A stretch of 63,525 nt of DNA, the filler included, from Phoronis australis (taxonomy: Eukaryota; Animalia; Phoronida), in the NCBI GenBank assembly GCA_002633005.1. It is 7 parts of 7 records of this genome, joined end to end, with 100 filler letters (N's around TTAATTAATTAA, not from the genome) between each part and the next. Parts side by side here need not be neighbours in the genome. Positions count along the whole stretch, not along the records: positions 33,033 to 46,616 come from NMRA01001580.1; 6 more parts are not named here. One strand, written 5' to 3'. The notes under the pieces were generated by a model, which saw only the letters and a list, made by a program, of their open reading frames with translations, made no database searches and was not told the origin of the DNA. Below are positions 9,001 to 48,715 of the stretch, piece by piece (positions within the stretch are counted from its first letter, which is position 1; every line of letters starts with the position of its first letter). The translations under genes and the position numbers were made by a program.

Positions 9001-11330
9001 CAATGTGGGCATTGGTGGTGTTTTGGGCATTGGCTCTGTTCTGGCTTTTGCTGAACTACCTCACTCTCACAACTTAGTTCAGGTATTGGTGGGATGGCAG
9101 TGGTGGGAATAGAGGTGGTGGGGCTACGGGGGAGGAAATGATGGTGGCGTGGTCGATATGAAGAAGGTGGACGAGTTTCATGTAATTTTAAGGGAGCAGT
9201 GTCAGCTCCTCTAGGAAGGGTCGCTACTCCCTTTCACTGGAGGCTGTCAGTGGAGTACCTGAGAATAGAATAGGTGGTCATGATAGGTCTATAATAAGCG
9301 TTGGCGTTGGAAGGGAGCCCAAGTGAATGTTGTGCTTAGCAAAGCAGTGCAAATGCAACGGTCTAGTTATTCCAGCAAAAGAGAACTTCAGACGTATTGA
9401 ATGTCAAATTTCGATTGATCTGCACTTACTCGAAAAAGATATTGAAATCAGAAATTACAGAAAGCCAAATATTGAAAGAATTAAATTTTAGATTTAGGGT
9501 TTGAACAAGCAATCGAGATGTTACGTGAAACAGGACTGGCTTTCATTATAGTTTTGAAAATATCTTCAACAGATAGGAATAATTGAGCCAGGATATCTGT
9601 CTACTCGGATAAGCGGGGGGAAGCATAATGAACTAGGATCATGTCAAAAGTGGTCGCGGTGAGGTTTTGGTGGTAGTGGACTGGTTCCAGCGGGGGTAGG
9701 ATGGTGTTACGGGAAGGGAATATGATGGTGCTGATGTTGAGGTGGTGGGTGTGGGGAAGGTGGAGAGAGTGGGGGTAGCTCCTCTAGGTAGGGTCGCCAC
9801 TCCCTTCACTGGAGGCTGCCAGCAGAGTACCTTCAAACAATTTATATGGTCGCGGTAGACCTATATCAGGTGTCGCAGGAACAGACAAGTGAGCGTTGCG
9901 CTTAGTGATTAACAAAATTACAGAAGGACAAATATTGAAATATTTGAAGTTAGCTTTACTCTTTCATCAAGTAGTCAAGATATTTCGTTAAACGAGGCTG
10001 TCTTGCATTTTTCTTTTGAAGGCTTCTTGATTAACTGATATCTTCAACAGACAGGGCTAACCGAGCTAGGATATCTGTCTATTCAGATAAGCAAGGAGAA
10101 ATGCAGTGGAGTTGGATTGTGTCAAAAATGGTAGTGGAGTGGTTCTGGTAGGGGTAGTGGTAGGGTTAAGGGAAGAAGACGTGTGAATATGAAAATAGTG
10201 TGGTTGGAGTGGCAATGCTGATTGTAGTTATGGTGATCTTGGAAAAGGTGAATATGGCGATGGCGGTGTTTTGGGTGCCTGCCAAGTTGTTCCTCTATCA
10301 CAAAAAGTCCTCGATGGTGGTGGGGTAGTCCTGATTATGTGGTTGTGTGTGATGGGGAGGTAGTGAGGAGATTCGTGGTGGAAATAGTGGTGAAGCCAAT
10401 GTGGGCATTGGTGGTGTTTTGGGCATTAGTTGTGTTCTGGCATTTGCTGAATCATCTAACTCTCACAACTTAGTTCAGGTATTGGTGGGATGGCAGTGGT
10501 GGGAATAGAGGTGGTGGTGCTACGGGGGAGGACATGATGGTGGCGTGGTGGATATGAAGAAGGTGGAAGAGTTTCATGTAATTTTAAGGGATCGGTGTCA
10601 GCTCCTCTAGGAAGGGTCGCTACTCCCTTTCACTGGAGGCTGCCAGTGGAGTGCCTGAAAATAGAATTGGTGGTAATGATAGGTCTATACTAAGCGTTGG
10701 CGTTGGAAGGAGAGACCAAGTCAATGACGTACTTTGCAAAGCGGTGCAAATGCAACGGTCTAGTTAGACCAGCAAAAGAGAATGTCAGACTATTGAATGT
10801 CAATTTTCTATTGATCTGCACTTACTCCAAAAAGATGTGGAAAACAGAAAATATAGAAAGCCAAACATTGAAACATTTAAATTTTAGATTTATTGTTTGA
10901 ACAAGCAATCGAGATATTACCTTAAACAGGATGGCTTTCATTTTACTTTTGAACATATCTTCAACAGATAGGGATAACTGAGCTAGGATATCTGTCTACG
11001 CGGATAAGCAAGGGGGAGCACAATGAACTAGGACTATGTCGAAAGTGGTTGTGGTGAGGTTTTTGTGGTAGTGGAGTGGTTCCTGTGGGGGTAGGATGGT
11101 GTTACGGGAAGGGGACATGATGGTGGTGATGGTGAGATGGTGGGCGTGGTGAAGGTGGAGAGAACTGGGTTAGCTCCTCTAGGTAGGTTCGCCACTCCGT
11201 TCACTGGACGCTGCCAGCAGAGTACCTTGAAACAATTTACTTTATCGCGGCAGTGCTTTACGAGGTGTTGCAGGGAGAGACCAAGTGAGGGACGTTCTTA
11301 TCAATTACACAATTACAGAAGGACAAAACA
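1..11330. repeat. Complex higher-order satellite array with long and short subunits (~1.4 kb dimer)
   Basis: The core CCCTT(T)CACTGGAGGCTGCCAG recurs at about 680, 1951, 2511, 4181, 5441, 6139, 6991, 7929, 8501, 9230, 9802, 10625 and 11197. Spacings are ~572 (long to short), ~825-850 (short to long) and ~938 bp (long to long). The motif GATATCTTCAACAGA..GAGCTAGGATATCTGTCT also recurs, and the + strand is GGT-rich. Confidence 0.95.
2623..3449. mobile_element. Non-autonomous Helentron-type element (HINE/DINE-1-like) inserted into the satellite
   Basis: It splits the satellite motif AACAA|AATTA(C/A)AGAAGGAC. Left hairpin ATTATTGTCAC/GTGACAATAAT (2633-2657). Subterminal inverted repeat ACTCTGCACGTG (2660-2671) vs CACGCGCAGAGT (~3433-3444). 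Right hairpin TACTCTGCGC/GCGCAGAGTA (3420-3445). AAGAAT-type microsatellite near the right end; A-rich insertion site with no TSD. Confidence 0.7.
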
Positions 11331-12555
11331 TGGAAATAATTGTCTCCAAAATATCCAGATATAGAGCTCAATGTACGTGCTTTCAGCTCGAAGTTGTGGA
11401 GAGGCAATATTTTGCGGTGCAGCACACGCTTTGTCTTGTTTATAAACTAACATGACCTGTGGCTTGAGTGAATTATTACGAAACAGGAAAATTGTGAAGG
11501 AGATGAGGTTGAGGGTGAAGTCAGTTGACAAGGCATGTGCTAGTGATTTGTTGATTCATTTTCCAACATGACTAACTTTTTGACAATGTGTTTCTGTATC
11601 ACAACAGCGCGTTGGTCATCAGAAATTGCAAATACTAATAGTTCTTTGCCAAATAATACTAGTCATAGTCTTCATGAAGTGCTTAGAAGTCCCCGCAACA
11701 AAATGAGGACACATTATACAAATGAGTGAGTAATTAGCGATATGAATTCCCACGGTTCAAAAACCAAACCCCACGTTGAGTTCAACAAATGAAAAAGATC
11801 AAAAAGATACGGAAGATTCGTGAAATATCGGGCAAAAAATCAGCGCATACAAAGCACTTGATGTTCGATTAAACGCGTCAGTTTGAGGACACAATTTATT
11901 CCCCTGGAAAGAAAAAAACATTGTTATTCAAGGATACAATCAAATCGGCACGACGATCGGAACACAATACCCTGTATTTTTCAGATACATTTTCAAACTG
12001 TTATAAAGCCACATTGCTTCATGAAATTGGTCTCAAATTAATTGAAGTAGGTGTGGTGTTGGGGCTTGCGAAAGAACTGACAACTCCATATTGCTTGAGA
12101 TTAAATTCTACAGTTCGATTTGTCAATAAGTATAATTTTTATTCCCGACCACGGAACCGATAATGACGAACTGTCACTTCTTTGAAAGACCAAGACCACT
12201 TATCATATCAGTAAGGAACAAGTTGAGACCAATTTTACAGTGGTTCTATTGATCGAAATCAAAAGTTAGCTTCTTCAGCGAAACTCAAGTTTATTGTCGT
12301 TCTAATAAGCTAAGTTTGGTGTTTAAAAAAACAATATCGGTATAATTCGATCTGAAGTTTTACAATATAATTCAATTTTAATTTAAATGTATTTGAGTAA
12401 AAAGCTATTTCCAAATTAACATGCTCTATCGCTGACCAACGAAGTACGTCTCACTCATATAATGGCTTCAAAAGTAAACACTCCGGTCATCAATACAGGT
12501 AATTCTAAAACGCTGAAAATCGTAAATTCAGTCAAACTGCAGATAATCCTGAATA

Positions 12556-31878: not shown

Positions 31879-33353
31879 CTGTAATGAATGGGGTCAACAG
31901 ATTAGGCTGGACACAACCGACAGGCCAATGTGGACAGGACCAAGTGAACAGGGAGGACACATGGGCTAAACGACAACTGCACACTGAGAAATTCACCAAA
32001 CGGTACTAGCCAACGATCCAGTCTGTAAAAATGCGTATGAAACCCTTAGCCCACACTAGCGCTCCCTGGTGAACAGCCATCTGTTCCTCAGTCTATTCAA
32101 GTGACAAGAGGGGCCTTCTCCAACAGCACCACTGAGTGTATACTTTGTCACCCACGTGCATCTTTTGCATTAGTCAGGATTTTGAAGGTGTCGCGGCAAC
32201 CCCTACCCGCTATGTGGAACAGACCCACAAAACTATAGATGCACATGATGTCTGGGACCTGGAATGATGAACCCGAAGAGGAACACAAGACTCCAGGGCT
32301 TGTTGCTATGAAACTCCCTCCCTCCCGAGTCTCAACTTGGACAAAATCAACCTGTCAATACTCACCACAGCACTTCACCGAAACTTAAATTAAAAACGCA
32401 AACGATAGGAAATCAAAAAATTTCAAAATATGCACAAAAATATTATTTTTTACATTGCCCACAACATTATCTCTGCCCTTACCTGTTTAATACTAGCACA
32501 AAAACAATGCAGGCGGCTTCAAAAACAAGATGCAGAGAAAGTTTTATATGATAATCCGACAGTGTAATCGCACACTTGTGTCTGTTAGCATTAATCCTGG
32601 CCAAATGGTGATTGAAGACCCAAGCCTATCTCTAACCATTAGATCTGATCAAGGCCAATCAGATTATGTCACAACATCAGTTATGGCTGACATCCAGACG
32701 TGACTGATCTCTTGTTTACAACCAGAGAAACAAAAATGTGACATTTGAAGATGTCAAATAAACAAGACTTGCATAGGGTTCATGCCCATGTGAGCATCAC
32801 TGCTAGTTTTGGTGTAAACAGTCAATTAGAATCACTTAGTAAGATGGTGTTGTAGGTAATAGGCCATGATGCAGTGTTTAGTCACCCATAATGACATCTG
32901 CAGAGACTGTCATCAGTGTCTGTAAACTGTGCNNNNNNNNNNNNNNNNNNNNNNNNNNNNNNNNNNNNNNNNNNNNTTAATTAATTAANNNNNNNNNNNN
33001 NNNNNNNNNNNNNNNNNNNNNNNNNNNNNNNNCAGATAGGTCAGGAGAGTTCAACTCAGCTCGTAAGAATATGCCGGAGTTGCGAATCTGTTGTCTATAA
33101 TCTATGATAAGACAGAGAGACAGAGATCGTGTGACTCCGGAATTTAATAGTTTACAAAACAGCCACAGGCTTCGCATACCAGAAGTCAGCCATTACAATA
33201 ATGTCAGAAACGAAAACAGAACAGCTGTTCACCATGTTAGTGAGGTATTCAAAGCCGTATTCCTGGATTATATAAGGTCTGTGTTTTATTAAAAATGTGA
33301 CGTGACATGAATTTGTTGTTTGTTATTATTCTAACTGAGGTTTTAATTATTTC

Positions 33354-33609
33354 TGTTGTAATCGGCAACATCATTGGCCCTTTGTTTTTCCTGTGGCGTC
33401 TTGTGATTGGTCTGTTTTTGTGTGTTCCCCGTATGTAGGATATATAAGTCGTTGGCGCCACTGCCGGAAGGGTTTTTTTCAAGAACCGGCAATAGATATA
33501 CAAGTCCATGGTTGCTCCGCTTGGCGTCAACTGACTGACTGGCTGATATCTTCATAAAAGTAAGACAAGTACTCTTGTGCCTAACTAGTGAACCTGTAGG
33601 AATACAACA
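33354..33609 (+). repeat. 5' LTR of element A (256 bp)
   Basis: TGTTGTA...TACAACA terminal inverted repeat and TATATAA box. Very similar to 46306-46541 and less so to 40536-40779. Confidence 0.95.
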
Positions 33610-33611
33610 TT

Positions 33612-33625
33612 TGGCGTAGTCGGCA
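33612..33625 (+). promoter_or_regulatory. Primer-binding site, tRNA-Ser
   Basis: TGGCGTAGTCGGCA begins 2 nt after the LTR end and is complementary to the metazoan tRNA-Ser 3' end ...TGCCGACTACGCCA. Confidence 0.9.
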
Positions 33626-34299
33626 CTAGTTAGGGGTAACATAAGAGTATTTAACCGACTAGTTCAGACAGTCCACTTAGCGGCAATGATGCTTGATATA
33701 GACAGAAGAACGGTTATGCAGTGGAATTCGTATTTCCGTGACGAGTGTGGCCACAAATCCAAGACAGGTCGGTGGTCCTGGCATTAGAGTACAAATCAAT
33801 GAGTCTTCGATGACGTGCAGAAAGAATAACGTCGGCCACTCTGTACCAGCGCAGTGGATGTTTGGGGACTGTTACCCAACACAGGTTTTCAGATTTTTGG
33901 AACTGGTTCCTGATCAGTCCCACAGACACTGCTTCCAATCATACAGCATTACATAGCACTAGGGTCCATTCAGCCTAGTTCGGTCAAACGAGTAGGCTGT
34001 TTTGAATTTCCAAGAATGTCCTCTGGTGATTTTTTTTTACCTTGTAGTGAGCTTGATTATTGACCCTCGTCCTGAATATGATAAAGTTCAAGATCAAGAG
34101 CTGACTACTTTTAATGGTTCGTATAGAGGGACGAGAGTTAAAGCAGGCTTGTAACTGGGTTGGGTAGAACCAATCGCTGATGATGTTGATAATGTAGTAG
34201 TGCAATCTACAGGTGTCACTGCTATGTCCGAGAATGCTGATTCTTCGTCTGCCAGTCCCGATTCCTCTCAAGGGGGTAGTGCGGGGCTGTCAGCCGATG

Positions 34300-35446
34300 A
34301 GGATGGTTCCACCACTTTACCTCCAAAGCTGCTGTCACTTATTGAAACCTAAGACTGGCTTGTCTTCTAATGAGGCATCATTTCTTGAGAATCTCTTGTT
34401 AAGAGTATCCGGATGTGTTTGTGACTGACGATTTAGATCTGAGGAACTTTACAGCATTCGAACATGTCACCGTCACCAGCTCTGAACTTCCTGTCAAAAC
34501 AGCTACGAGGCGAACCCGTTTGTCTGTTTTGATTCGTAAGTCCGATGGTTCGGTGAGTTACTGTATTGACTACAGTGCTCCCAATAAATTACTAAAAAGG
34601 AAGCGTGGCCCCTTCCCTTGATTGATGAGTGTATCAACCTTCTATCTACTCCCTACCGACCCTCATCTGATGATCAGGTGGCAAAATTTAATCGTATATT
34701 GATGGATGCTGTGCGTTGTTGCATTTCCAATAGTCAGGATGACTGGGATCATTTCTTGCCGCAGATTGCATGTGCTATTATCAGGTCTTCAGTTAATAGG
34801 CAGACAGGTTACACTCCCAACATGCTTATGCTGGGCCGTGAGATATCCAGTTACTCTCATGTACCCAGTGGCATGAGGGCAGGACCCTGTTTCCCCTATT
34901 GATTTTGTTGACACTCTTCAAAAGAGAATTTCTAGTGTGCATGAAGTGGCCAGGAAGACCCTAGTCATTACCCAAGCTCGTATGAACCGCGATTACGACC
35001 TTGGGGCACATCGTCGTGATGTTGTATATATCATTGACACCGCGGTCATTAAAGGCAAACGTAAGAAACTAAGTCCACCTTGGAAAGGTCTTGGCATTGT
35101 TATTGATGTTTTTACGCCCTTTCTTTTCAGGATCTGACTTGAGAATTCTGTTTCTATGGTTAATCATGATCGTTTAAAGAGTTGTACTGATAAATTGGAA
35201 ACGTTGCCTAATTGGATTAAAAGGATGTTAGCTGTGGGTAATTCTACCAGTCCCCTTCTTGTTGATAACGACCTGTACTGTGTATGTCGCCGCCCGGATG
35301 ACGGAGGATTTATGATCCAATGTGATTCGTGCGATGAATGGTATCATGGTAGCTGTGTCGGAATAAACAGTGAGGTGGCGGCTACCATCGACAAATATTA
35401 TTGCCCTCGGTGCAAGCCTGTTAGGCGGTCTTACTTATCATGTTAA
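34300..35446 (+). pseudogene. pol: Element A pol remnant: RT N-terminus, deletion, then integrase C-terminal half with fused PHD finger
   Basis: DVFVTDDLDL..EH, VLIRKSDGSVSYCIDY and LIDECINLL (RT). At ~34646 it jumps to TPYRPSS...FNRILMD and PPWKG (IN, GPY/F), then in the same frame LYCVCRRPDDGGFMIQCDSCDEWYHGSCV...YYCPRC (C4HC3 PHD). Confidence 0.92.
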
Positions 35447-35755
35447 ATTGTTTTTATTTGTAGGTTCTCTTGTCAAGACGTAAGATTAAAGGAGAATCCC
35501 GACCTACCCGTTTTTAGGGGTAACGCAAATGCCCCTACTCAGGTAACGGTTTCAGCTGTGTCGGAATCAACAGTGAGGTGGCGGTAACCATCGACAAATA
35601 TTATTGCCCTCAGTGTAAGCCCACTAGGTGGTCTTATTCATCATGATTACTTGTTTTTATTTACTGGTTCTCTTGTCAAGATGAATGGTTAAAAGAAAAC
35701 CCTGATCTGCTAGTCTTCAAGGGCAATGCTAATGCCCCCAGTCAGGTAACAGTTG
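35351..35755 (+). repeat. Diverged 203-bp tandem duplication of the PHD 3' half and the accessory ORF start
   Basis: AGCTGTGTCGGAAT.AACAGTGAGGTGGCG at 35351 and 35554. Confidence 0.9.
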
Positions 35756-35965
35756 AAGCGGCCGTCGCCGTCATGCCAGTATCCCAGGGAGGGTATGCCG
35801 GTGCCGGTGCCATCTTTGGGTAATGGACCATTGACTTCAGTGGAAAGAGAAGGTCCAGTACCTCAGGAACCCTTCCACGCAATTCTCTTCAGAGGCGGAC
35901 CTGGACGATTCCATTTTGGATGATCCCGCGTCATCTGCCCCTGTGGCTTCAAAGTCTCGACCATT
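35464..35965 (+). pseudogene. Element A accessory ORF, N-terminal remnant (homolog of the TatD-ORF N-terminus in C)
   Basis: FSCQDVRLKENPDLP and EADLDDSILDDP match MFRCTDVRLKTNPDLP and ESDIDESVLDDDP of ORF 43588. Confidence 0.75.
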
Positions 35966-36030
35966 GGACAACTGTGAGTAGCACCGTGGAACCAATAGCC
36001 ACAATCTACAACATTTGGCGTAGCTGCAGT
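35966..36030 (+). repeat. Truncated 5' LTR (U5 stub) of element B plus degenerate tRNA-Ser PBS
   Basis: GGACAA..GTGAGTAGCACCGT.GAACCAATAGCCAC....TACAACA (ends 36013) matches 40039-40086 and is followed by TT-TGGCGTAG. Confidence 0.8.
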
Positions 36031-36314
36031 CAATGCTTGCGGTGCTTTCCCCTTGTTTACTTTCACCAGAGGCATTAAACTTAAAGTTCATAAAGTTAAG
36101 TTTCCGTCCCGGTACTACCCCATGGAGGGTGGTAACTGAAAACCACGTGGTTTCAGTTTTTCTTTAGACATTTTTGTACAGATGTACATATTTCCTTGTA
36201 CATATTATCATTTTTTAGTTTCATTATTGTTTTTTTTCCAGATGGTTAATTGTATAATTTAGTATTTTTCAGTAATTGTCTTAATTTCTCAGTGCCTTTA
36301 GAGCACCAATCACC

Positions 36315-37728
36315 ATGGCATCTAAGATCCTTATCAATTCTTGTGATGCTACAACACTGTTAGACCTTCCAGGTATGACTACTGATGTTGCTGCTGCAGT
36401 TATTTACTTCAGGGCAGTGTCAGCGATTACACCGGATAATATTACTAAGATACATTCCGCTTGGAAGCCGACCAAAACGATGCATAAACACATCGACTTC
36501 TCCATCCCATCTTGTCTGCCGGAAGATTTGGCTAAAGTTACAGAGTTGGTCGACAATTATGGTAAGGAAACACCATCGAAAATGGTTTCAGCTCCTGTTT
36601 CTTTTCCAAAATTGGCAACTAAATTTACCCCATCCAAGACCAATATTGCTACTGGTGGTGCTTAAGAAAAGACAACCTCATCTCCACATACTAGCATGTC
36701 ATTTAAGCCGTCGGGGTCTTCAGCTAATTACCTACAACATGCTCCATGCAACCTAACTTTCAGTGGTATGCTAGGCACCTGGGAAGATTTTTTCTGGAAG
36801 TTTGAAAATGTTGCCAAAGGTAACTGTTGGCCTAGCCAAAAGTGCCGTACTGAATTAGGTATGTGCTTAGAAGGAGATGCTTCTCGTTGGTTCGCCAACC
36901 ATATCAGAGCTTTAACAGATGCATCTTACAAACAGATCATCAAAGATATGACATATTGCTTTGGTGCAGAAATCAAGTGTAACGAAGTACACCAGCTTAT
37001 ATTTCAGTCAGCCAAACAAACTCCTGATGAGTCGCTTGAGCAATGAGCTGACCGCTTAACCAGTTTATTTTTATTAGCTTTTCCAGATGCTAGGGACTCT
37101 TGACAAAGATCAGGCTGTCCTTCGTTTCCGCTTGGGTTTGAAGGACAGAGATGTTGCTCAATGGACAATAAATAGTAAACCGGAATCAGTCATGGAGGCT
37201 TTGAATGCCACACGATGGTTTTCAACCACCAAAGACCTTATGACACAGTCGAGACCAACCAAGACTGTTTCTTTCTGTAGGGAAACCTTTTCAGAGGAAG
37301 AGGAGGAAGAAGTCTCGGTCCGTCAGTTAAATAAGAAGCCCACTCTTAAATTCATTCCTCGTGGCTCTTTAGAGTCTCGTTTAGATGTTCTTGAGGGTAG
37401 GTGCAACGATTTGGATACATCGGTTTCATTCCTCAAGACTGATAATATTAAACTTCACAAGAAAGTTGATGAGTTGAAATCTGACCTGTCTAAATCTCGT
37501 GCTGAAGTATCAAGCAATTTTAATAAGTTGTTTGCAATGTTGCAGTCACAGTCGCCGAAGCGACCTTCTCCGTCTTCGCCAAGAGCTTCGCCATATTCAT
37601 CTCCGGGAAGACCGTCTACTCTTCCTAGGTGTTTCAGGTGTGGTAAACTGGGGCATTACCAGTCAAGCTGTAGGAGTTCTCCAGTGGCGGCTCGACAAAT
37701 GTTCCTAGGTGACGAAGATTTAAAATGA
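36315..37728 (+). pseudogene. gag: Element B gag with N-terminal helix-hairpin-helix, capsid-like region, coiled coil and CCHC zinc knuckle
   Basis: INSCDATTLLDLPGM (HhH-like); TFSG..GTWEDF.WKFE...W...LEGDA (Gypsy capsid); CFRCGKLGHYQSSC. Broken by frameshifts at ~36660 and ~37100 and by a TGA at 37044. Confidence 0.9.
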
Positions 37729-37761
37729 TAGGGGCTGGGGGACAAGGTCTAATCCCAGTCC
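37719..37761 (+). promoter_or_regulatory. Putative -1 ribosomal frameshift signal between gag and pol
   Basis: Slippery heptamer T TTA AAA directly before the gag TGA, followed by a GGGCTGGG/CCCAGTCC stem. The -1 frame stays open for ~25 codons. Confidence 0.55.
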
Positions 37762-38172
37762 GTGCCAAGTCCAAAGACTTCCCTGATACTAAAACATAGT
37801 TGGTCTGTTGGGTTACATGAAGAAACACACGCATAATTCTTCAAAGTCTTGCAGTTCAACCAATAGTTCAGTTCTTAAAACTGCTGAATCGTGTACTCAG
37901 ACTAGTGAGTTACCTGTTGCTTTAACTGATGAAGTCGTGCCTGTACATAGTTCCGCTAACAGAGCTGAAGTATCAGACTCATTGGTTTCCGCTAATAGTT
38001 TCATTCCTCAGAATGTTGTAAGTAGTTTCACCTGACCTCCCACCAACTCCAGGGGAGCTGTCTCAGGTTCAACCGGCTGAGGCGTTGGGTGTGGCTGTTG
38101 TGTTATTCCTACGATACCAACTGTGGACCCTGTTCTGGAAAGATATAGATAACGAAAACTGCTCCTGGGAGT

Positions 38173-39490
38173 ATGTACTACATACCTATCATCATCAACG
38201 GTACAAGTATCAGTGTGGTTATTGATTGTGGTGCGGATAGAACTATTATCTCTCACCGGTTGTTCAAACTATTGACTGATGTGGTGTTTTCTCATGACAT
38301 CAATGTCCATACTGCTGGCGAAGATCTATCTAAGAAAGGTTTCTGCACTAAACCTGTCACTTTATCGATAGGTGACCAGTTGTATCAATCTTCGGTAGTT
38401 GTGGCCAACATCAGCGATGATTGCCTTTTATGCCTTGATTTAATGAAGCAGTTATTGATATGAAATCAGATTCCATAACTTTCGCTGACAAGACCTTAGT
38501 TATGAATTATGGAGTTCCTAGTAAATACCAGCCTTCTGTTAAGCTGTCAAAAGGTGTCGATATTCCAGCAAATATGGTTAAGCGAGTGGACTGTATAACT
38601 TGTCCAACACAGTATATTTTGAACCAAGCTTAACCATTGGCTCTCGAGTTATGATCCCTCGAGCTCTGCTTAATACGGAAATCTCCCCAGTTTTATTTAT
38701 TTTCAATTCTTCGGAGCACCATGTCAAGTTGAAGGCTGACTCTGTCTTGGGTTACTTAGATTACATGGAAGACTGGGAAGAGTGTCCTGTGGACCGGCCG
38801 CCTACCTAAGAGAGTGAAACTGTCGTCAAGCAACTGTCTGCCGGTTCTGGTGATTCATCTGTTGGTGTAAGTCCAGTGAGTGAACTTCCTGAAAAGGTGG
38901 ACAGTCTGTATAACAAACCTAAAGATTTACTAACTGAGGGACAATCGTCTAAACTGTATCAATTATTACTAAGTTAGTCAGACGTTTTTGTAGCAGACGA
39001 CCTTGATCTTGGTAATTTTACAGCAGTTGAGCACAGTGTTGACACAGGCGATGCCCAACCTATCAAAATGGCTATGCGGCGTACACCAAGATGTTTTGTG
39101 GCAGAAGAAGAGAGTCCCCTTAACAAGATGCTTAAAGCTGGTGTAATTGTTCCTTCTTCTAGCGAATGGGCTGCAGATCCTGTTCTGATTCGTAAAAAAT
39201 TGATGGGTCAGTTTGTTACTACATTGATTATAGAAAACTGAATAATGTCACTAGAAAAGATTCATGGCCTTTACCTCTCATTGATGAGTGTATTGACTTA
39301 CTGTCTGATAACAAGTGGTTCAGTAAGCTAGATGCCAATTCTGCCTATTGGCAAGTTAAAATCCATGAAACCACATATGGGTTATTTGAGTTCAATGCCA
39401 TTTGGACTCTGTGGTGCGTCTTCTACGTTTTCCAGAGGAATGAGTTTAGTTCTCAGAGGTTTAAATTGGCACACAGTTCTTGCATTTTTA
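38173..39490 (+). pseudogene. pol: Element B pol remnant: aspartic protease and RT N-terminal half, truncated just before the catalytic DD
   Basis: VVIDCGADRTII (protease); IDYRKLNNVTRKDSWPLPLIDEC, FSKLDANSAYWQV and MPFGLCGASSTF..M..VLRGL.W..VLAFL (RT). Multiple stops and frameshifts. Confidence 0.92.
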
Positions 39491-39826
39491 GTACAAAGTA
39501 GTCTAGTTAACAGTTAGGGTACTAGACCTGCCAGTTTCTTTAGTTCATTTTTTGTTTTTTTCTTGTTTTGACTTTTTGCCATGGTAATGGCTCAGTTTTT
39601 CTAAGGTTTTATAATTTAGTTTAGTACCCACAGTCACATTGTTTTTTTATAAATAGTTTAGTTTACCGGACACCATAGTTTTGTACTAACTTGTCTCCTT
39701 TATCGAGGCTGTTAGTCCACTAACTGTCATTTAGATAGGGAGGGAGGAGTAGTTATAGTTTTTTTAGTTTTCTTTTTCACATTCACTCCTCCTTAGTTTT
39801 TTTCAATGAGTTTGTTAGTCAATTTT

Positions 39827-39840
39827 AGGGAGGGGAGGAG
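39827..39840 (+). promoter_or_regulatory. Polypurine tract of element B
   Basis: AGGGAGGGGAGGAG directly abuts TGTTGT at 39841. Confidence 0.85.
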
Positions 39841-40086
39841 TGTTGTGAACTTAGGTAGGTACTTGTTGTTGTGCCTCAATGCGTCTGTCCTTGGTCGTCT
39901 GAGTGTTTATGGTGGACCGGATGTAGTTCATAGTTTATATCACGTGAATGGGGAAATGCTGGACCTGCTCGTGTCGTCCTTCCTGAGTGAAGGACGTGTA
40001 TTCAACGCCTATATAAGTGTAAAGACAAGTCAAGAAATGGACAATGGTGAGTAGCACCGTCGAACCAATAGCCACTAATTACAACA
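39841..40086 (+). repeat. 3' LTR of element B (246 bp, distinct LTR family)
   Basis: TGTTGT...ACAACA termini, TATATAA box and upstream PPT; its 3' end matches the stub at 35966-36013. Confidence 0.85.
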
Positions 40087-40535
40087 GTACCCATGGAGGT
40101 GAGAGATGAGGAGACACCCCAAAAACCAAAAAAATCTTCAAAAGGGGGTCCAGTAGTCTTCCAAACACCGTAAGGCTGGTCCGGAGACTTTTCCTGCTCC
40201 TCCACAACAAAGCGACGTCATTTCTTGCCCTCTTTGTGGTTTCCACGTTCCTGGAGACCACAGTGGTAAGTGCGAGGCACACAACATACATTTAGATTGT
40301 ATTTTAATACTGTGGCGTCTCTATGTTGTGATGTCCTTTTCGTTAAACGATGTTGGTCTTGGCCTGGTGCGACACCTGACGCCAGAAGTGCCCAGCAGAG
40401 GTCACCCTGTCATCACGTGACCTGTCACCTCTCAAGACCACGTGACAAGATCGTCTGGGACTTCTGGAGTTCGCTGCCGTCTTGTGCGGACATTATGACC
40501 ACGCGAGTACACTCTAGACTTTACTCTGACACTAT
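40087..40535 (+). pseudogene. Continuation of the element A accessory ORF after the B insertion
   Basis: QQSDVISCPLCGFHVP (~40205-40252) is homologous to QPTDQYQCPLCPFTVP in element C. Confidence 0.6.
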
Positions 40536-40779
40536 TGTTGTAATCGGCAACATCATTGGCCCTTTGTTTTTCCTGTGGCGTCCTATGATTGGTCTGTTTT
40601 TATGTGTTCCCCGTATGTCCCTTATATAAGTCGTTGGCGCCACTGTCGGATGGGTTTTTTTCACGAAGAACCAGCAAGTCGTCCATGTTTGTACAGCTTG
40701 ACGTCAACTAGGACAGACTTAACCATCTTCAAATGTAAGTACTCTTGTGCCGAACTAGCGAACCTGTAGGAATACAACA
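40536..40779 (+). repeat. 5' LTR of element C (244 bp)
   Basis: TGTTGTA...TACAACA termini, homology to the A LTR, no upstream PPT, followed by a PBS. Confidence 0.95.
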
Positions 40780-40781
40780 TT

Positions 40782-40795
40782 TGGCGTAGTCGGCA
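40782..40795 (+). promoter_or_regulatory. Primer-binding site, tRNA-Ser
   Basis: TGGCGTAGTCGGCA. Confidence 0.9.
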
Positions 40796-41170
40796 CTAGT
40801 TAGGGTTATCATAAGAGTATTTGACCGACTAGTTCAGACGGCTTTTAACTGTCCAGGGCTTTTTCTATGATCCGGGGGGAAAGTTGGAGAATTTAGTCGG
40901 TGCCGTGCTAACAGGTGGTTAGTACCGTGGCAAACGGGTTCTTGGTCTTTAGGTATAGGTTGTTTTAGGTTGTTTGGGCCTTATTTTGGGGTTTTTGAGG
41001 TTTATTTTTGGGTCTTTGGTATTTTGGGGTTTAGTTGCCGGTTCGAAGTGGGTGTGGTTCCCTTTTGACTTGAGTCACGTGGTAGGCAGTGTTTTGGTTA
41101 CAAACGCCAATTCATTCCCTTACTTTTAGCCCTTCTATAACGTATATATATTGGCCTTTGATAGCCAACC

Positions 41171-42155
41171 ATGTCAGTAGGTTTCACAATTCCCATTAAC
41201 TACTGCCATGAGTCGGACTTGTTAGATTTGCCGGGAGTTGACGAGGAAATCGTCCTGCAAATAGTTGACTTCCGGGAGAGGTATCCTATCGATCGTCACA
41301 ATATTTACCAGATATCTGATGATTGGGGAGTGACCAGCTTGGTGACTGACCGGGTGGATTATTCCTTAACCCCCAGTTCAGGTTCTCGAAACTATGATTT
41401 GCCAGCGGGGTTAGCTCAAGTGGCTGACGCTTGCGACAGGCTGAATAGATCCCCTAGTCCTCATTTGGGTAGAACCTCTAGGTACCGAGGGGGCTCCCGA
41501 TACCAGGTCGATGAGGGTAGGCGCGACAGTGGCATAAGTCCCGGCGTTTATACTCCTTCTAGTAGGCGAAGAGGGTATTCGGGAAATGTAGGAGGTAGGA
41601 GTAACAGTGGTCTGGATCCCGACGCTTTTATTTCTCCTGTTAGCCCAAGGGAGTACTGGGGAAATAGAGAGGGAAGGCGCGACAGAGGCGGAAGTCCCGG
41701 CGCAAGAAATGCCAGGGGGTATAAAGTGGACTCGCATGCTCCTAATAATTTAGTTTTCAAGGGCTTGCGAAATACCTGGAAAGATTTCCACTGGAAGTTT
41801 AGCCGTTTTGCTAGGGAAAACTTCTGGTCTGGTGATAAATGTTTAGCAGAGCTAAGTCTTTGCTGTGAAGGGGATGCACTCCGCTTTCTTTGTAATTTTA
41901 CAGAAAGTTGGCCAGAGGCATTGTATGACGAAGTAGTGGAAACAATGAGAAAACGTTTTGGTGTTGCTTCAGGGGTGCCAGGAGTAGACCAACTACAATT
42001 TCACTCTGTGTCCCAAAAACAAGCCGAGTCCTTACATCAATGAGCTGACAGGCTGAATCATCTGTATTTTTCGGCCTTTCCAAACCCCTCAGATGGTGAC
42101 CGCCATCTGGCCATACTCAGGTTTTGTTTGGGGTTAAGTGATCAGGATATAGGCA
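41171..42155 (+). pseudogene. gag: Element C gag with N-terminal helix-hairpin-helix, Arg/Gly/Ser-rich linker and capsid-like region; C-terminus deleted
   Basis: IPINYCHESDLLDLPGVDEEIVLQIVDFRERY; VFKG..TWKDF.WKF...W...CEGDAL. Homology to the B gag continues past the TGA at 42041 (ADRL...AFP...AILRFCLGLSD). Confidence 0.9.
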
Positions 42156-43634
42156 AGCAGAGGGAGGACACAAATCTGACTTTCCTATTTGACTGGTAAT
42201 ATAATGGTGTTGAACTTTCACAATTCCGCTTATTTATCGCCAGCGCTACGGCCAAAAACTATTGGCTCAATAGGGAGCGGTTTGTTGTGTCAAATAATTT
42301 ATTATATTGGAAGGCTCCAGATAAGGAGGATACTCTAAAATTAGTAGTGCCCGAGTCCTGCAAGTCAGATATTATAAAGCATTGTCATGACTTACCCTCC
42401 GCGGGTCACCAGGGAATTGACCGTACCAAAGCGAAGTTGAAAGATAAGTAGTTTTGGCGTGGTATGGCCGCGAGTATAAAATCTTATATTGAAACATGTG
42501 CTGGCTGTAATTTAAATAAGCAAGGTAGAGGCCGCTATGGTAAGTTTCCCTTAACTACATTCCATGCAGGGGTGCCCATGGAACGCGTCCATTTAGATTT
42601 CCTGGGTCCGCTCCCTGTATCCGATCAGGGCAATGAATATATCCTCATGATGGTAGACCAGTTCACCAAGTGGGTGGAATGTGTAGCCCTCCCGTCGCAG
42701 ACGGCAGAGGTCACGGCGAACGCTGCAGTGGGCCAGTTCTTTAGTAGATTTGGGTTCCCATTGCAGGTGTTTACCGATCAGGGACGAAATTTTGAAAGTC
42801 ACTTGTTCCGTCATATTTGTTCCCTTTTAAAAATCAAAAAAACAAGAACGACTGCGTATAGGCCCTCTTCTAATGGACAATGTGAGCGATTCAATCGTAC
42901 CCTTATGGATGCAATACGGTGTTATGTCAGTAGTTTCCAGACTGATTGGGATATGTATTTACTCCAAATTGATGGTGCTATCCGGTCTTGTGTTAATCGT
43001 CATACTGGCTTTACAGCTAATAAAATGATGCTGGGTCGGGAAATAATTCAGCCAGTAGACCTCATGTATCCACCGCCCTTACAGGATGCTGAGGACCCAA
43101 TAGGTTATGTGAACCGGCTCAGTAAAGCGATTACTCAAACTCACGAGATAGCTAGAGGAACATTGCAGACTACCCAAGCTGTTATGAAACGCGATTATGA
43201 TGTGTCTATGGTCAAACGTTCATATAGTATTGGAGATTTAGTCTATGTCCTTGATTCAGCTAGCGTTAAGGGGAAGTGTAAAAAACTATTACCCCCTTGG
43301 AAAGGGCCGGCCATTGTTCTCGAGGTCATTACTCCCTATCTATTTCGAATTAGGCATGAGAATTTTGTGTCGGTAGTCAATCATGACCGTCTGAAACTCT
43401 GTAAGGATAGGTTTCAAGACCTACCTATCTGGCTTAAGAGAATGATCCAGGTAAATTCCACAGTGAACCGAGATAGTCTAGCAGAAGACATACTGTTTTT
43501 GTAGGAGACCTGATCATGGCGGGTTCATGATTGCTTGTGACGTATGTGATGAGTGGTATCATGGGGAATGTGTAAGCATTACCACTGATGACGCACTGCA
43601 CATTGACTGGTACATCTGTCCTAGTTGTGAATGA
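42156..43634 (+). pseudogene. pol: Element C integrase (HHCC, DDE, GPY/F) with C-terminal PHD finger
   Basis: CHDLPSAGH...CAGC; HLDFLGP, FTDQG, QCERFN; PPWKGP. After a +1 shift at ~43490: YCFCRRPDHGGFMIACDVCDEWYHGECV...YICPSCE* (43491-43634). In-frame stops at ~42197 and ~42449. Confidence 0.93.
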
Positions 43635-43656
43635 CATTTGCTTTGCAATACTTCAG

Positions 43657-45665
43657 ATGTTTCGATGTACAGATGTGAGGTTGAAGACGAATCCGGACTT
43701 ACCTTGCATTACCGACATTCCAAGTGAGCGGGAGGACTCTACGCAGCCCCCGCCTCAACCAAGGGAGGAAGATCAATCCCCGGTGCAAGAGGTGTCCGTT
43801 ATAGCAGCAAATACGGGGGAATCAGACATCGACGAGTCTGTCTTAGACGACGACCCGGTCGTAATGGTCTCACCCCCACGGCCTATTAGTGTAAATGTGC
43901 CCCTGTCAACCCCCGCAGATTTTCTTACCAGTCCTTCGTCCCCTATGATGGTAGATTCTGCGGTAGTGTCAACAGGTTCCGCAACTACGCCGCTGGCTTC
44001 GCTTGGTGAGTCTATTTGGGCCCTTCCCGAATACTCCCACGGAGTGCAGATGGCAGAAGCCTTGTTACAACCCACTGATCAATATCAGTGTCCCCTGTGC
44101 CCCTTTACCGTTCCTCTCGGTGAAGATGAACTGTTGTGCAAACATATTTTCGCATGTCATCTGCCACCCTTGTTTTCAACTAACCAGGCTGACGTGGTTG
44201 CCAGCCCTCAGCTTCATCGAGAGAGATACGACTCTTTGGCCTATCTTTTTTCATTGTTGGAGGGACGTAGCATGAAAGACTCGTTAGATCTTGTAGACAG
44301 GTGTAACCTGGTATGCCGAGGCTTGAGCCAGCTGCCACGGGTACTCCCCCTGGATCAAATGGCGATGTCCGTAATGTCTACCACATTTGGCTGGGACAGA
44401 GTGCCGAGTTTCACGTTAGACTCAACTCGCCAGCCGCCTGCTTCCACTGGTATGTGATCACTCTTCTGCTCCAAAAATTACCAGAGAGTGACCGTGCCCG
44501 ATGGTTTGTAAGTGCACATAATGTGAGGCTCCCTCAGTCCTTCTTGGACTCCTTGTCCGGAGAGGTCGGACCAACGTCCTTTATAACCCCAAGGCCTCAG
44601 ACCTCTACTTCAGCCCCTTCACCCCCTAAAAGACCACGGACTTATGCCCAGGTTGCTTCCTGTCCTGAGGCTCAGTCTGCACCGCTCCCTCCTGTACCAT
44701 CGGCGCCGGCAACTACCTCCTCGGCGAAACGATCCGCTAAACTGCCATCTTTGTATGGTCCCCAGTCGACCGCTAATCCGCAGCCTGCTGCATCCGCCCC
44801 AAAGCCAGAGGCAGTCGATTCGCATTTCCAACTAGATCGACTGACCTTCGCGTGCCAACGGTTTTCCCCCGAATTGGCCGGCCGACTACTTACCATCCCC
44901 GAGATCACGAATATGACGGCCATGCTCCCGTGCCCCTCAAAAAATCCAGTCCATTTAACAGGGGGCATAGCGGTATTTTGTGATCCGATTCACTATAAGC
45001 TTGTGGAGAAATCCACGGAGGCGTTCCCTTCGGGTTGGAAGGCTGCCATAGGCATCCATCCGAAAAACGCCATGTCGTACAATCCGGCCATGGAGAAGGA
45101 GATTTTCAGGCTCCTCCGGTTGCCCAACGTTGTTGCACTAGGTGAGTTGGGATTAGAAGAAGGCCACGGTAGCGGTGAAGTACAGCAGCGAGTAGTCGTG
45201 TCGCTGGTGCGCGGTCTTGCCCGCTTCCAGACGGTTCACGGCACTCGTGTGCTTGTATTGCACCTTCGCGCCTGGGAGTCCACTTCACCCTTTCACTCTG
45301 GTCATCAGTACATGAGACGGTTGCTGAGTGACGTTCTGCCCAGAGCCCAACCAATCCACCTCCATTGTTTTTCCAGTAATCCCCAGGAGGTGTGATCATG
45401 GATGAAGGCTTTCCCAAATGACTATTTCGGCTTTGCTGCCACTGCTCGCCACTTTTCCTCTCCCCAAGCTAAAGCTTTGGCAGCCGTACCCCTTAATCGG
45501 CTTCTTTTAGAGACCGATTCCCCCCATTTAGCGACGTCCTCTCGACCTATGGCCCCATATTTCATTGGGGAAGTGGCCTGGAAAATAGCACGCCTGCGTC
45601 ACTGTAATGCTGACTATTTATTGGAGCACTCGGCCAAGAACGCACGTGTTTTATACCGATTGTAA
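43657..45665 (+). pseudogene. tatD: Retrotransposon accessory ORF: acidic/Pro-rich N-terminus, CxxC..H..H motif, C-terminal TatD-family nuclease (44811-45665)
   Basis: TatD motifs in order: VDSHFQL, AIGIHP, VVALGELGLE, LVLHLR, HLHCFS, YFGF, VPLNRLLLETDSPHL. One frameshift (~44420) and one in-frame TGA (45393). Lies between pol and the PPT/3' LTR. Confidence 0.9.
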
Positions 45666-45745
45666 GTCCGGAGAGGGTCTCTAGTGAGTATTTCTACCAC
45701 TAGGTGTCTGCTCTCCCATCCAGGGGGGTGGGTGGTTCCCCATAN

Positions 45746-46043
45746 CTCGCCACTTTTCCTCTCCCCAAGCTAAAGCTTTGGCAGCCGTACCCCTTAATCG
45801 GCTTCTTTTAGAGACCGATTCCCCCCATTTAGCGACGTCCTCTCGACCTATGGCCCCATATTTCATTGGGGAAGTGGCCTGGAAAATAGCACGCCTGCGT
45901 CACTGTAATGCTGACTATTTATTGGAGCACTCGGCCAAGAACGCACGTGTTTTATACCGATTGTAAGTCCGGAGAGGGTCTCTAGTGAGTATTTCTACCA
46001 CTAGGTGTCTGCTCTCCCATCCAGGGGGGTGGGTGGTTCCCCA
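45746..46043 (+). other. Apparently identical duplicate of 45446-45743 across a single N (probable assembly overlap artefact)
   Basis: ~300-bp copy separated by one N at 45745; no mismatches noticed. Confidence 0.75.
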
Positions 46044-46291
46044 TAAGGGTGACTATTTATTATTTATTTCATGTGTTCAAGGGTGCTGGCTCTTTGAACT
46101 TCTATATTATTTGATGATACTTCTGTTCTTAACCCATGTGTATTATGCTCTCATTCTAGGGGAACTGTCCTTGTGCTACCAACACGCTGAATTTTCTTCT
46201 TTTTTGGAGGGGGGAGGAGGATCAAAAATTTTCGGGCATTTTTTGATAAATTGGCAATGATGTTGTTTCCCGGGTGGGTCCCACGATTTTT

Positions 46292-46305
46292 AGGGAGGAG
46301 GGGAA
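46292..46305 (+). promoter_or_regulatory. Polypurine tract
   Basis: AGGGAGGAGGGGAA abuts the LTR start. Confidence 0.9.
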
Positions 46306-46541
46306 TGTTGTAATCGGCAACATCATTGGCCCTTTGTTTTTCCTGTGGCGTCTTGTGATTGGTCTGTTTTTGTGTGTTCCCCATATGTATGCTATATAAG
46401 TCGTTGGCGCCACTGCCGGACGGGTTTTTTTCAAGAACCGGCATATACAAGTCTATGGTTGCTCCGCTTGGCGTCAACTGACTGACTGGCTGATATCTTC
46501 ATAAAAGTAAGTACTCTTGTGCCTAACTAGTGAACCTGTAG
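46306..46541 (+). repeat. 3' LTR (A-type), missing the last ~10 bp
   Basis: Near-identical to 33354-33599; ends at GAACCTGTAG without GAATACAACA. Confidence 0.93.
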
Positions 46542-48315
46542 TAGCGAGGACAGCATTCTTCAGCGAATCGCTTCGCGTATCTGTCACCGTGTTAAATTCG
46601 CTCACTACAATCGGCANNNNNNNNNNNNNNNNNNNNNNNNNNNNNNNNNNNNNNNNNNNNTTAATTAATTAANNNNNNNNNNNNNNNNNNNNNNNNNNNN
46701 NNNNNNNNNNNNNNNNTGACAAAAATCTCAGCTCGCATTTCCAAATTTCAGGTCGCAAATGCGACCTGCAGCTCGTTATGTCGAGCCCTGATGATGCAAT
46801 TAGTAAACCTATACATTTGCATATTCATATGTACTAACTTGTATAATGTTATCAAATATATGCCAAAGTATCAGGTTGTTGCCGTCAATAGCTGATATGG
46901 CATGTCATATACCTTCAATATTGTTCAATATTGTTATCTGGAGTGACAAAAATGAAAAAGCCATGGTCACCACGTTAGAAATGTAGCCAGACTGCGGAAT
47001 TTTTCTCTGATTTTCCTTAATAACAATTTTCCATAAAAACACTTCACAGTCAGTTACCACCTAGTTTTCACAATGGCCATCAAAGTATTTATTGATTTGT
47101 AGATTTCTCCGGGGCTGTAATCACTTTATACAGGAATACTCAAGGGATTTTATACTCTTTTTGTCTTCAGATCTCCATGACATCACATTCTTGACTTCCT
47201 GATGTTTTACAACTGATATGATACAGCGTATTGAAAGTCTAAACCTATTAGAACTGGTGATTTATTCCATTACTTAAAGCTTCGGCTAGGTTGACGTGGG
47301 TAACGAAAATATGAATTTTTTTCCCAAACACTTGCGCTTTAATTAGTAGCCAAAGGAGTGACACTTGTGCTGAGGTGTTGTTGGTGGTATGAGTTACCCC
47401 AGGACTGCTGGTGTTTTCTTAGCACTTCTGTTTGTAGCCAATACTTTTATTTTCAGGGACATGCATGCCCTTTGTGGAGGTTGTTACAAGATCACTGCAG
47501 TAATACCGTAATCGTTCGGGTTAACGCCCTGGGTGGTTAAATTGGCGAGTCCAAAAAATCGGGGGAGGGCGGTTAACCGAGCAGTGGGCGGTTAAATCGA
47601 AAATCCACCTAAAGTAGGGGATGGGCGGTTAACCGAACATGGGCGCTTATTACGACAGACAACCGCCCTGGGCGGTTAATCTTACCTGGCGATCTAAATC
47701 CCGACACGGCAATCATACTCGGAACGCGTAGCCCTTTTCAAAGAGCTTTATCGTCACGTCGCCAAATGACTGTGAAAACGTCATAACAGCGGATGATCCC
47801 AACAAAGGTTCTCTTGCCCTCAGAGTAGTCATTTACAATTAATTTTACAAAATTGCTGAGTAATAGCCGTCCTGCGGTGCGCAGACGACCAGTCACCACT
47901 AGAATTAAAACTGTTTCAAGATGTTAATCTGCTTAAGTGCGCGCGTGCAAGCTTCACGTGTTTCAGAGGTCAGACATCAAATTTATGGTTACAGTCTCGT
48001 GCTATATGTAGCTGTCAAGTTCTGAGTCAGACAGCAGTTTTAAAATTGGTTGTAATAAAAGTTTGAAAAACTTAACTCTGCTGTTTTTTTGTGTTGGGGA
48101 TGTTATAGTCGACACTCCATGACTCAATGACATTTTCGGCGTATGGTTCTGTGGCTAGCTGTCTTATGTCGACAGCCCGGCATTGCTCTTTTGCCGTTGC
48201 GCCAAACATGCTATGCAAAGAAGTAAGACAAGGATCGGGGGTGGTCGAGCCAGCCGTCGATCAAGAATAAAATTGCAAGCAACTGCATAAATATGTTACA
48301 AAATGTCAGAAAACA

Positions 48316-48715
48316 GCAATGTTTCAATTCATAATTCTAAACGATCACCTTACCAAACTTCGTGGTGGAAAAACATTTATTTTTCATGCAAGATGTCCAG
48401 ATTATCCTATTTATATCACTTGTAATATCGCACTGCGGTACTGTTCGGTCCCGCTGTTATTGCGCAATGTCTCGGTCGGCTGACAATCATGACTTGGAAA
48501 TTCCGTCAAGTAATAACAATGTTTCAATTCATAATTCTAAACGATCACCTTACCAAACTTCGTGGTGGAAAAACATTTATTTTTCATGCAAGGTGTCCAG
48601 ATTATCCTATTTATATCACTTGTAATATCGCACTGCGGTACTGTTCGGTCCCGCTGTTATCGCGCAATGTCTCAATCGGCTGACAATCGTGACTTGGAAA
48701 TGCCGTCAAGTAATA
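48316..48715. repeat. 200-bp tandem duplication
   Basis: Two near-identical units; ORFs 48362 and 48562 are offset by 200. Confidence 0.95.

Follow-up and report, generated by a model that had tools for sequence, protein, structure and literature searches.

Ty3/Gypsy elements combining an HhH-bearing Gag, a PHD finger on the integrase and a TatD domain in ORF3, traced from a nest of decayed elements in Phoronis australis

The rotifer elements Juno and Vesta are Gypsy-type retrotransposons in which a third open reading frame (ORF3) behind pol encodes an apparently intact 3'-5' exonuclease and no envelope protein (env) (PMC5408684). Chromoviruses and CopiaMBD carry a chromatin reader at or beside the end of the integrase (IN), which is thought to steer integration (PMC6673714), and in Cer1 CERV of C. 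elegans, as in elements with env-type subgenomic ORF3s, a non-env protein takes the env position and is made from a spliced message (PMC10309623). PHD fingers occur in CR1 ORF1 and in Ginger1-9_HM (PMC6673714, PMC2836005), so that a PHD alone is not new to mobile DNA. Here we analyzed a stretch of 63,525 nt from Phoronis australis (the window), of which positions 33,354-46,541, within the part derived from NMRA01001580.1 (positions 33,033-46,616), hold the remains of Ty3/Gypsy elements. An HhH domain in Gag, a PHD on the IN and a TatD domain in ORF3 together mark one IN clade, whose members occur in clams, oysters, scallops and sea urchins.

Three decayed Gypsy elements, each of a different family, are nested at this locus. 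The original prediction had described them as three copies of one family which can be combined into a single layout; instead, identity among the three is 33–50% for gag pieces, 50–73% for IN segments and 44–75% for the reverse transcriptase (RT). Self-comparison by BLAST revealed three related long terminal repeats (LTRs), A, B and C (A/C 94%, B/C 83%, A/B 84%), and a second LTR family at 35965-36013 (partial) and 39841-40086 that belongs to the middle element. A primer binding site (PBS) is located 3' of LTRs A and B, a polypurine tract (PPT) 5' of LTR C and of 39841. Behind LTR A, element 1 retains an RT fragment, half an integrase, a PHD and the start of an ORF3 in which element 2 is nested. 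The latter still holds gag, protease (PR) and half of the RT between its own LTRs. Element 3, behind LTR B, starts with a partial gag, from about 42153 is deleted up to the integrase, and continues with IN, PHD, ORF3, PPT and LTR C. None of these copies shows the composite layout on its own and every ORF contains stops, frameshifts or deletions; the layout was therefore tested on relatives. When aligned columns are counted, LTR A and LTR C are 98% and LTR B and LTR C 89% identical, although the genes behind A and B are of different families; recombination, LTR sharing and a chimeric assembly are all candidate causes of the closeness of A and C.

Within the window every part that the original prediction had listed was recovered in its place by LTR comparison and Pfam profiles. 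Above cut-off we found PHD twice (8.8e-14, 7e-11), rve (1e-13) and TatD_DNase in two pieces of 40.9 and 43.4 bits (cut-off 27), and in addition integrase H2C2, aspartyl protease, an RVT_1 fragment and zf-CCHC. HHH_3 stayed below the cut-off in the ORF at 36285 (E 0.0046) and did not match the ORF at 41165, the domain being backed by the relatives. No RNase H (RH) profile matched anywhere in the window, in agreement with the predicted loss of this domain from all its copies. The predicted tRNA-Ser primer also held: the PBS complement was found behind a tRNA T-loop at 111 loci, 13 of which gave a tRNA call, tRNA-Ser in 12. A second TatD copy in the window was considered and rejected, because 45746-46045 repeats 45445-45744 with 100% identity on the other side of a single N and is most likely a scaffolding overlap of the assembly.

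A protein search with the TatD region returned 254 proteins at E<=1e-5, the best 120 of which were examined. The first 56 (E 3e-41 to 8e-21) are proteins of 249-787 aa whose source names are Dreissena, Saccostrea, Pecten, Argopecten, Magallana, Pinctada, Lytechinus or symbiont metagenome-assembled genomes (MAGs), and 14 of 17 longer matches are of the same kind. An ORF3 alignment used against genome, viral and metagenome collections recovered prokaryote-type TatD only (best E 1e-21 or weaker). With a PHD-free query consisting of the integrase we obtained 1598 proteins; among the best 120 of these a PHD is present in 107, at a median of 4 residues from the C-terminus, and one protein (P0180) unites HHH_3, PR, RT, RH, IN and PHD in a single ORF. 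The gag search gave 92 matches, 63 with at least 130 residues before the capsid, and 47 of these 63 match the HhH profile, a count that is biased upward by the HhH included in the query.

A DNA pattern for the middle domain of ORF3 hit 30 loci. Six of them represent the family, all from two MAGs labelled Sedimenticola, and pol lies directly upstream in five of the six. Searching both MAGs yielded 36 ORF3 and 121 integrase matches; the latter, all Gypsy-type, divide into 111 in one public MAG (G001) and 10 in the other (G002). The contigs are most likely animal host repeats binned with the symbiont, which would also explain database entries for TatD and integrase under 'Thiodiazotropha' and 'Sedimenticola'.

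We profiled 83 loci, among them 17 contigs positive for ORF3 and the 60 that ranked best among further contigs with an integrase match. Six relatives (L174, L179, L181, L233, L234, L235) carry all domains in the order HhH, capsid, CCHC / PR, RT, RH, IN, PHD / helical, zinc-finger, TatD, with one stop in ORF3 of L235, and three more (L236, L237, L239) show the same order permuted or in part. These relatives bear out the composite architecture, and do so more strongly than the window alone could. Compared with the defining features of Metaviridae (Ty3/Gypsy; PMC7879559), LTRs, PBS and PPT are present in the window, with a PBS also on L234, L235, L236 and L242; capsid and CCHC are found in element 2 and in L174, L179, L181 and L233-L236; and the pol order PR-RT-RH-IN is seen in the six unpermuted intact relatives, the window lacking RH and half of the RT. 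Judged from these sequences, the architecture of the clade is almost certainly as given here.

A tree of IN cores was built from the window and 71 loci whose core is near-complete; it places the window integrase in a clade of 12 rows (100/99). All 11 other loci of this clade possess PHD and TatD, and eight of them HhH, gag being absent from the contig in the remaining three. Among the 60 rows outside the clade PHD was found in none and TatD in one (L244); many of these contigs are incomplete, so that absence weighs less than presence. A tree of RT, RH and IN from 56 loci agrees with the IN-core tree. HHH_3 matched 10 of 35 gag N-termini, namely all eight gags of the core clade, L244 and L247, and none of the other 25. 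L244 and L247 are sister rows with subsets of the modules, HhH and TatD without PHD in L244 and HhH only in L247, which indicates that the modules arrived stepwise. In the simplest history HhH and TatD came first, PHD was added later and TatD was lost in L247. The case of L247 counts against an indispensable role of TatD, since a member inside the HhH group shows that at least one lineage can do without the gene. The original prediction had regarded the modules as traits of a family and not as one-off captures. They are indeed not one-off captures, TatD included, but they characterize a clade and not a single family.

Recent movement is suggested by near-identical multicopy ORF3s in Mya, Dreissena, Argopecten and Magallana; Mya arenaria has 13 ORF3 members on 11 contigs of distinct size and Dreissena 16. 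ORF3 and pol clusters also share contigs of exactly the same size, 8316, 8314, 7625, 4927, 2489916, 308087 and 5966437, in oyster-related and other data.

The same data contain further Gypsy lineages. A sister lineage (L244:7518-9032, L223, L225, L245) has an HhH-Gag and a shorter TatD ORF3 of ~500 aa without the N-terminal helical domain, and lacks IN-PHD. Extra ORFs of other lineages encode a GDSL esterase (L251, L290, L291, L295, L299), BTB/POZ (L282, L293), a baculovirus F-type env (L296, L300, L302) or C2H2 zinc fingers (L254, L258, L260, L271, L279). One pol of the same clade (P0192; RT, RH, IN, PHD) additionally carries PF01885, its source name being RNA:NAD 2'-phosphotransferase (TPT1/KptA family), and in L306 the integrase lies upstream of RT and RH, a Gmr1-like order.

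From N- to C-terminus, full-length ORF3 of the relatives comprises a helical domain, the CxDxRL motif, a CxxC..H..H domain with PxNSxAxLxHW at its end, and the TatD domain. Both window ORF3s begin at the CxDxRL motif behind an acceptor-like tract, and the helical domain, sought in all six frames of the window, was not found. What had been called the N-terminus of the extra ORF corresponds to the middle of the relatives' ORF3, whose helical domain of ~80 aa precedes it. The zinc-finger/helical domain was modelled with a predicted local distance difference test score (pLDDT) of 90; H36 and H41 are invariant, C21 and C26 nearly so, and it has no Foldseek match at E<=0.001 (best VIA Z 3.6). The N-terminal helical domain (pLDDT 82) gave generic helical matches only, best Z 7.8. 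Both domains are without a Pfam match or a clear Foldseek or VIA match, which does not establish a new fold. No env glycoprotein was detected in ORF3, which in Pfam matches TatD_DNase only; the Baculo_F ORFs mentioned above are on unrelated rows.

The TatD domain itself is well preserved, with 130.8 bits to TatD_DNase in L174 (cut-off 27). GExG and E[TS]DxP are present in all 25 TatD rows and HxH in 24, the exception being the window copy, which lacks the second His. The GE and ExD residues correspond to E91/E201/D203 of E. coli TatD and E593/E705/D707 of TATDN2, which are required residues (PMC10711561). From this conservation the ORF3 TatD is very probably an active nuclease. It is under purifying selection: for the three closest informative pairs, the ratio of non-synonymous to synonymous substitution rates (dN/dS) amounts to ~0.13-0.14 (0.030/0.224, 0.018/0.132, 0.209/1.47). 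Element TatDs are monophyletic, the L244 type included (35 rows, SH support 99, quick tree), and their distances track those of the IN (Mantel rho 0.78 for 13 rows, 0.61 for 11 core rows). The RH motifs RKELL, TDH and DALS are intact in all eight TatD-bearing loci that have this domain; TatD is therefore an addition, and the idea that it replaces RH was rejected. A Pol-TatD fusion was rejected as well, as none of 17 long TatD matches contains pol domains and the frame of ORF3 relative to pol varies.

Regarding its origin, two profiles were compared, one built from 12 TATDN2-like animal proteins and one from 12 bacterial TatDs; the former gives the higher score for all 25 element TatDs. The motif H[LRVIFM]H[CS] is found in 25/25 element, 12/12 TATDN2-like and 0/13 bacterial rows, a second motif in 20/25, 12/12 and 0/13, respectively. 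Human TATDN1/3 are the weakest PDB matches of the ORF3 TatD; the tree was built without curated TATDN1/2/3. Several observations weigh against a capture from TATDN2. Mean identity to TATDN2-like and to bacterial TatDs differs little (0.289 vs 0.264), the TatD tree lacks a firm root, the labels of TATDN2 were assigned automatically, and bacterial YcfH-type proteins are the best PDB matches (no TATDN2 chain among the matches listed). Furthermore, R-loop binding by TATDN2 depends on its disordered N-terminus (PMC10711561), a region in which ORF3 has other domains. On balance these sequence comparisons suggest that the element TatD was probably captured from host TATDN2.

The nearest solved structures to the element PHD are those of PHF2, CXXC1, PHF8, BPTF, DIDO1, SPP1 and TAF3, all of which we take to be H3K4me3 readers. 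At the positions which we assume to form the H3K4me3 cage (Y, M, W) of the Cys4-His-Cys3 PHD when aligned to PHF2/CXXC1, the reader pattern is present, with Y/F in 101/104, M in 104/104 and W in 104/104 sequences. Speaking against this assignment, the fourth cage position is variable, with D in 52/104; D is also present in CXXC1 (chain 9c0o). We consider it fairly likely from the residues that the element PHD reads H3K4me3. No chromodomain was listed for the best 120 IN relatives or the window, where PHD (PF00628) takes that place. The Gag HhH matches EEPD1 and ComEA and is predicted to bind DNA without sequence preference, with cDNA and chromatin as candidate targets. The DNA binding, chromatin targeting and nucleic-acid processing originally proposed for the modules is consistent with the conserved residues.

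The distance from the pol stop to the start of ORF3 is 1-173 nt, and the frame varies. In 10 of 14 relatives the first ATG of ORF3 has a YAG with pyrimidine tract no more than 20 nt away, compared to 213 of 2284 (9.3%) other ATGs. We mapped three RNA runs carrying the same species label (X6, X7, X8; 18-19% of each run) to 40500-45744. Depth of first-mate-minus reads in X8 was 4.8-14.6x over 43650-45744 and 11.4x over the LTR start, and 0-2.3x over gag and IN (40675-43649); the bias on that strand recurs in X6 and X7. Given the usual library chemistry, this RNA is likely an ORF3 message in sense direction with its end in the 3' LTR. Most mapped reads are 90-99% alike to the window, so that other copies or alleles, and not this copy, are the likely source. 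Expression of ORF3 from a spliced subgenomic message has to be weighed against the following: the acceptor rule was fixed after the sequences had been seen and the 14 elements are related, strandedness of the libraries is unrecorded, X6 and X7 contain an equally strong first-mate-plus signal across the whole element, and no splice joint from LTR to ORF3 was seen in the mapped share of X6-X8. Taking both sides together, such a message is quite probable. The reads of opposite orientation in two of the three runs could be antisense or piRNA-precursor transcription.

We propose that the element would replicate as an ordinary Gypsy element primed by tRNA-Ser. The PHD on the integrase tail would tether the integration complex to H3K4me3 nucleosomes, and ORF3, likely made from a spliced message separately from Pol, would act in the nucleus through its TatD domain, as an RNase removing RNA:DNA hybrids (R-loops) from the loci or intermediates of the element. 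We would place this reading as a whole, comprising layout, spliced ORF3, capture from TATDN2, hybrid clearance and PHD tethering, just short of an even chance. The hybrid-clearing role, drawn by analogy, is a tentative assignment. It is favored because human TATDN2, the closest cellular relative, degrades the RNA strand of R-loops (PMC10711561), and because TATDN2 is expressed in the germline of fish and mammals and acts in germ cells (PMC12709183). An extended version is more doubtful, in which an old and still mobile lineage of marine invertebrates would use the modules to colonize promoters: the PHD would direct integration to promoters marked by H3K4me3, Gag would bind DNA, and a captured nuclease for germline R-loops, joined to a zinc-finger domain that lacks a solved relative and made from a spliced message, would resolve hybrids and transcription conflicts arising from such insertions.

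ORF3 might instead counteract silencing as an RNase or RNA-binding protein which removes antisense, small-RNA or nascent-transcript silencing signals. ORF3 RNA that is seemingly apart from and above gag/pol RNA, as for a regulator, would suit this role, as would the opposite-strand reads over the whole element in X6 and X7; TATDN2 cuts RNA hairpins besides R-loops (PMC10711561), and the same idea has been raised for the rotifer DEDDy ORF3s (PMC5408684). The steady purifying selection and co-divergence with IN show no sign of the fast turnover typical of counter-defence (no test for positive selection was made), and we regard counter-silencing as a doubtful explanation. A role as 3'-5' exonuclease/AP (apurinic/apyrimidinic) endonuclease on the cDNA or at the integration site, trimming RT mismatches or aiding gap repair, appears unlikely. 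RT has no proofreading, and the catalytic residues of the TatD are intact. E. coli TatD, TATDN1 and TATDN3 are enzymes of this type (PMC12709183), but TATDN2, the nearest relative among cellular proteins, has a preference for RNA; in addition, ORF3 is not fused to Pol and has no evident route for packaging into the particle. Finally, TatD could be passive cargo or a host-beneficial passenger without a role in the element cycle. L247 and possibly other sister rows lack it and many copies are annotated as ordinary genes by NCBI; dN/dS of ~0.14 between copies, co-divergence with IN, the conserved acceptor and the near-identical multicopy ORF3s largely refute the neutral-cargo version and make either form very improbable. 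Clearance of hybrids thus remains our preferred, if tentative, function for ORF3.

Table 1. Features of the nested elements (positions refer to the window).
Feature	Position	Strand	Basis
LTR A (TG...CA), 5' end of element 1	33354..33609	+	94% to LTR C, BLAST
PBS complementary to tRNA-Ser 3' end	33612..33625	+	
Element 1: decayed RT N-terminal fragment; gag, PR, rest of RT/RH deleted	34376..34647	+	tblastn with intact pol
Element 1: integrase C-terminal half, frameshifts and one stop	34645..35250	+	
Element 1: PHD finger, in frame with integrase tail	35273..35416	+	Pfam PF00628 8.8e-14; PDB nearest PHF2/CXXC1/PHF8/BPTF
Element 1: acceptor-like tract 35447-35463 and ORF3 start (CxDxRL motif)	35447..35964	+	
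Element 1: 203-bp tandem duplication	35351-35756	+	
Element 2: 5' LTR remnant (own LTR family) and PBS-like site	35965..36023	+	
Element 2: gag, HhH 36324-36521, capsid 36744-37100, CCHC knuckle; one stop, one frameshift	36315..37728	+	
Element 2: protease and RT N-terminal half, cut before xxDD motif; RH, IN deleted	38149..39490	+	
Element 2: PPT 39827-39840 and 3' LTR 39841-40086 (TG...CA)	39827..40086	+	
Element 1: ORF3 resumes (CPxC zinc-finger start), cut by LTR B	40087..40535	+	weak: tblastx to 44068-44115, 56% over 16 aa, E 0.008
LTR B 40536-40779 and tRNA-Ser PBS 40782-40795, 5' end of element 3; no PPT in front	40536..40795	+	
Element 3: gag, HhH 41186-41383, capsid 41741-42160	41171..42160	+	
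Element 3: deletion junction near 42153, gag end/PR/RT/RH lost		+	reads and contigs diverge at 42153
Element 3: integrase, H2C2 42341-42523, core 42581-43045, one internal stop	42146..43471	+	
Element 3: PHD finger, frameshifted relative to integrase in this copy	43485..43631	+	
Element 3: splice-acceptor-like tract ending CAG, directly 5' of ORF3 ATG (43657)	43637..43659	+	sequence; RNA depth step ~43650; motif shared by relatives
Element 3: ORF3 with CxDxRL motif, linker, CxxC..H..H zinc-finger/helical domain, linker, TatD	43657..45665	+	
Element 3: ORF3 zinc-finger/helical domain	44095-44495	+	frameshifted near 44420
Element 3: ORF3 TatD	44802-45659	+	one stop at 45393
Exact repeat of 45445-45744 across single N; likely assembly overlap	45746..46045	+	
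PPT 46292-46305 and LTR C 46306-46541 (3' end missing)	46292..46541	+	

Elsewhere in the window, 48317-48715 is a head-to-tail duplication (199 bp, 97%) whose copies are one position apart, like those of 45445-46045 (300 bp, 100%). Positions 1-11342 form a long diverged tandem-repeat array with units of several hundred to ~1300 bp, 70-91% alike, and a strong skew of G over C.

With the ORF3 TatD, a new nuclease class joins the enzymes encoded in the env slot of LTR retrotransposons. In this clade it is linked to two further modules, and sister lineages allow the stepwise history of the combination to be traced. A TATDN2-like enzyme under control of the element predicts processing of R-loops or RNA, and if the modules do serve to colonize promoters, this would be the first demonstrated case of a retroelement that controls R-loops by means of an enzyme derived from its host. 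There is also a consequence for annotation: multicopy bivalve and sea urchin genes named 'TatD', 'TATDN2' or 'YabD-like' as well as 'TatD family hydrolase' entries from symbiont MAGs are likely element genes.

Full-text literature searches, whose scope lies outside Repbase, Dfam, GyDB and subscription papers, returned no description of a TatD-bearing LTR element, and none is described in the accessible passages of PMC13524379, PMC8220671, PMC6962438, PMC10309623, PMC6338049 and PMC6238403. The last defines 16 MolGy clades of mollusc Gypsy elements by RT/RH only. The RT lineage studied here is probably one of these clades and may well be catalogued under a number; the available text of that paper does not mention PHD, DNase or PBS, and its four searchable supplements do not mention TatD, PHD or DNase.

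The element is neither an errantivirus nor a chromovirus. With chromoviruses and CopiaMBD it shares a chromatin reader at the integrase end; here, however, the reader is an H3K4me3-type PHD, which predicts insertion near active promoters and not in heterochromatin or methylated DNA, the opposite of chromoviruses. Like Cer1 CERV and the env-type subgenomic ORF3s it has a non-env protein in the env position with a spliced message, which is a prediction in our case, whereas the CERV protein is a nematode-specific RNA export factor for which the accessible passages report no nuclease domain (PMC10309623). Host TATDN2 has a TatD domain with equal catalytic residues behind a long N-terminal region, and element TatDs share motifs with TATDN2-like animal proteins, but they form their own clade, reside within LTR elements, are multicopy and are accompanied by two predicted folded domains of no clear match. 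The closest described analogue is the DEDDy ORF3 of Juno and Vesta (PMC5408684): these are likewise Gypsy-type elements with a non-env ORF3 behind pol and an apparently intact nuclease of, as here, predicted activity. Their enzyme is RNase D-like and not TatD, a name that does not occur in that text, and its accessible passages report no HhH-Gag or IN-PHD, while the elements described here combine both with helical and zinc-finger domains in ORF3.

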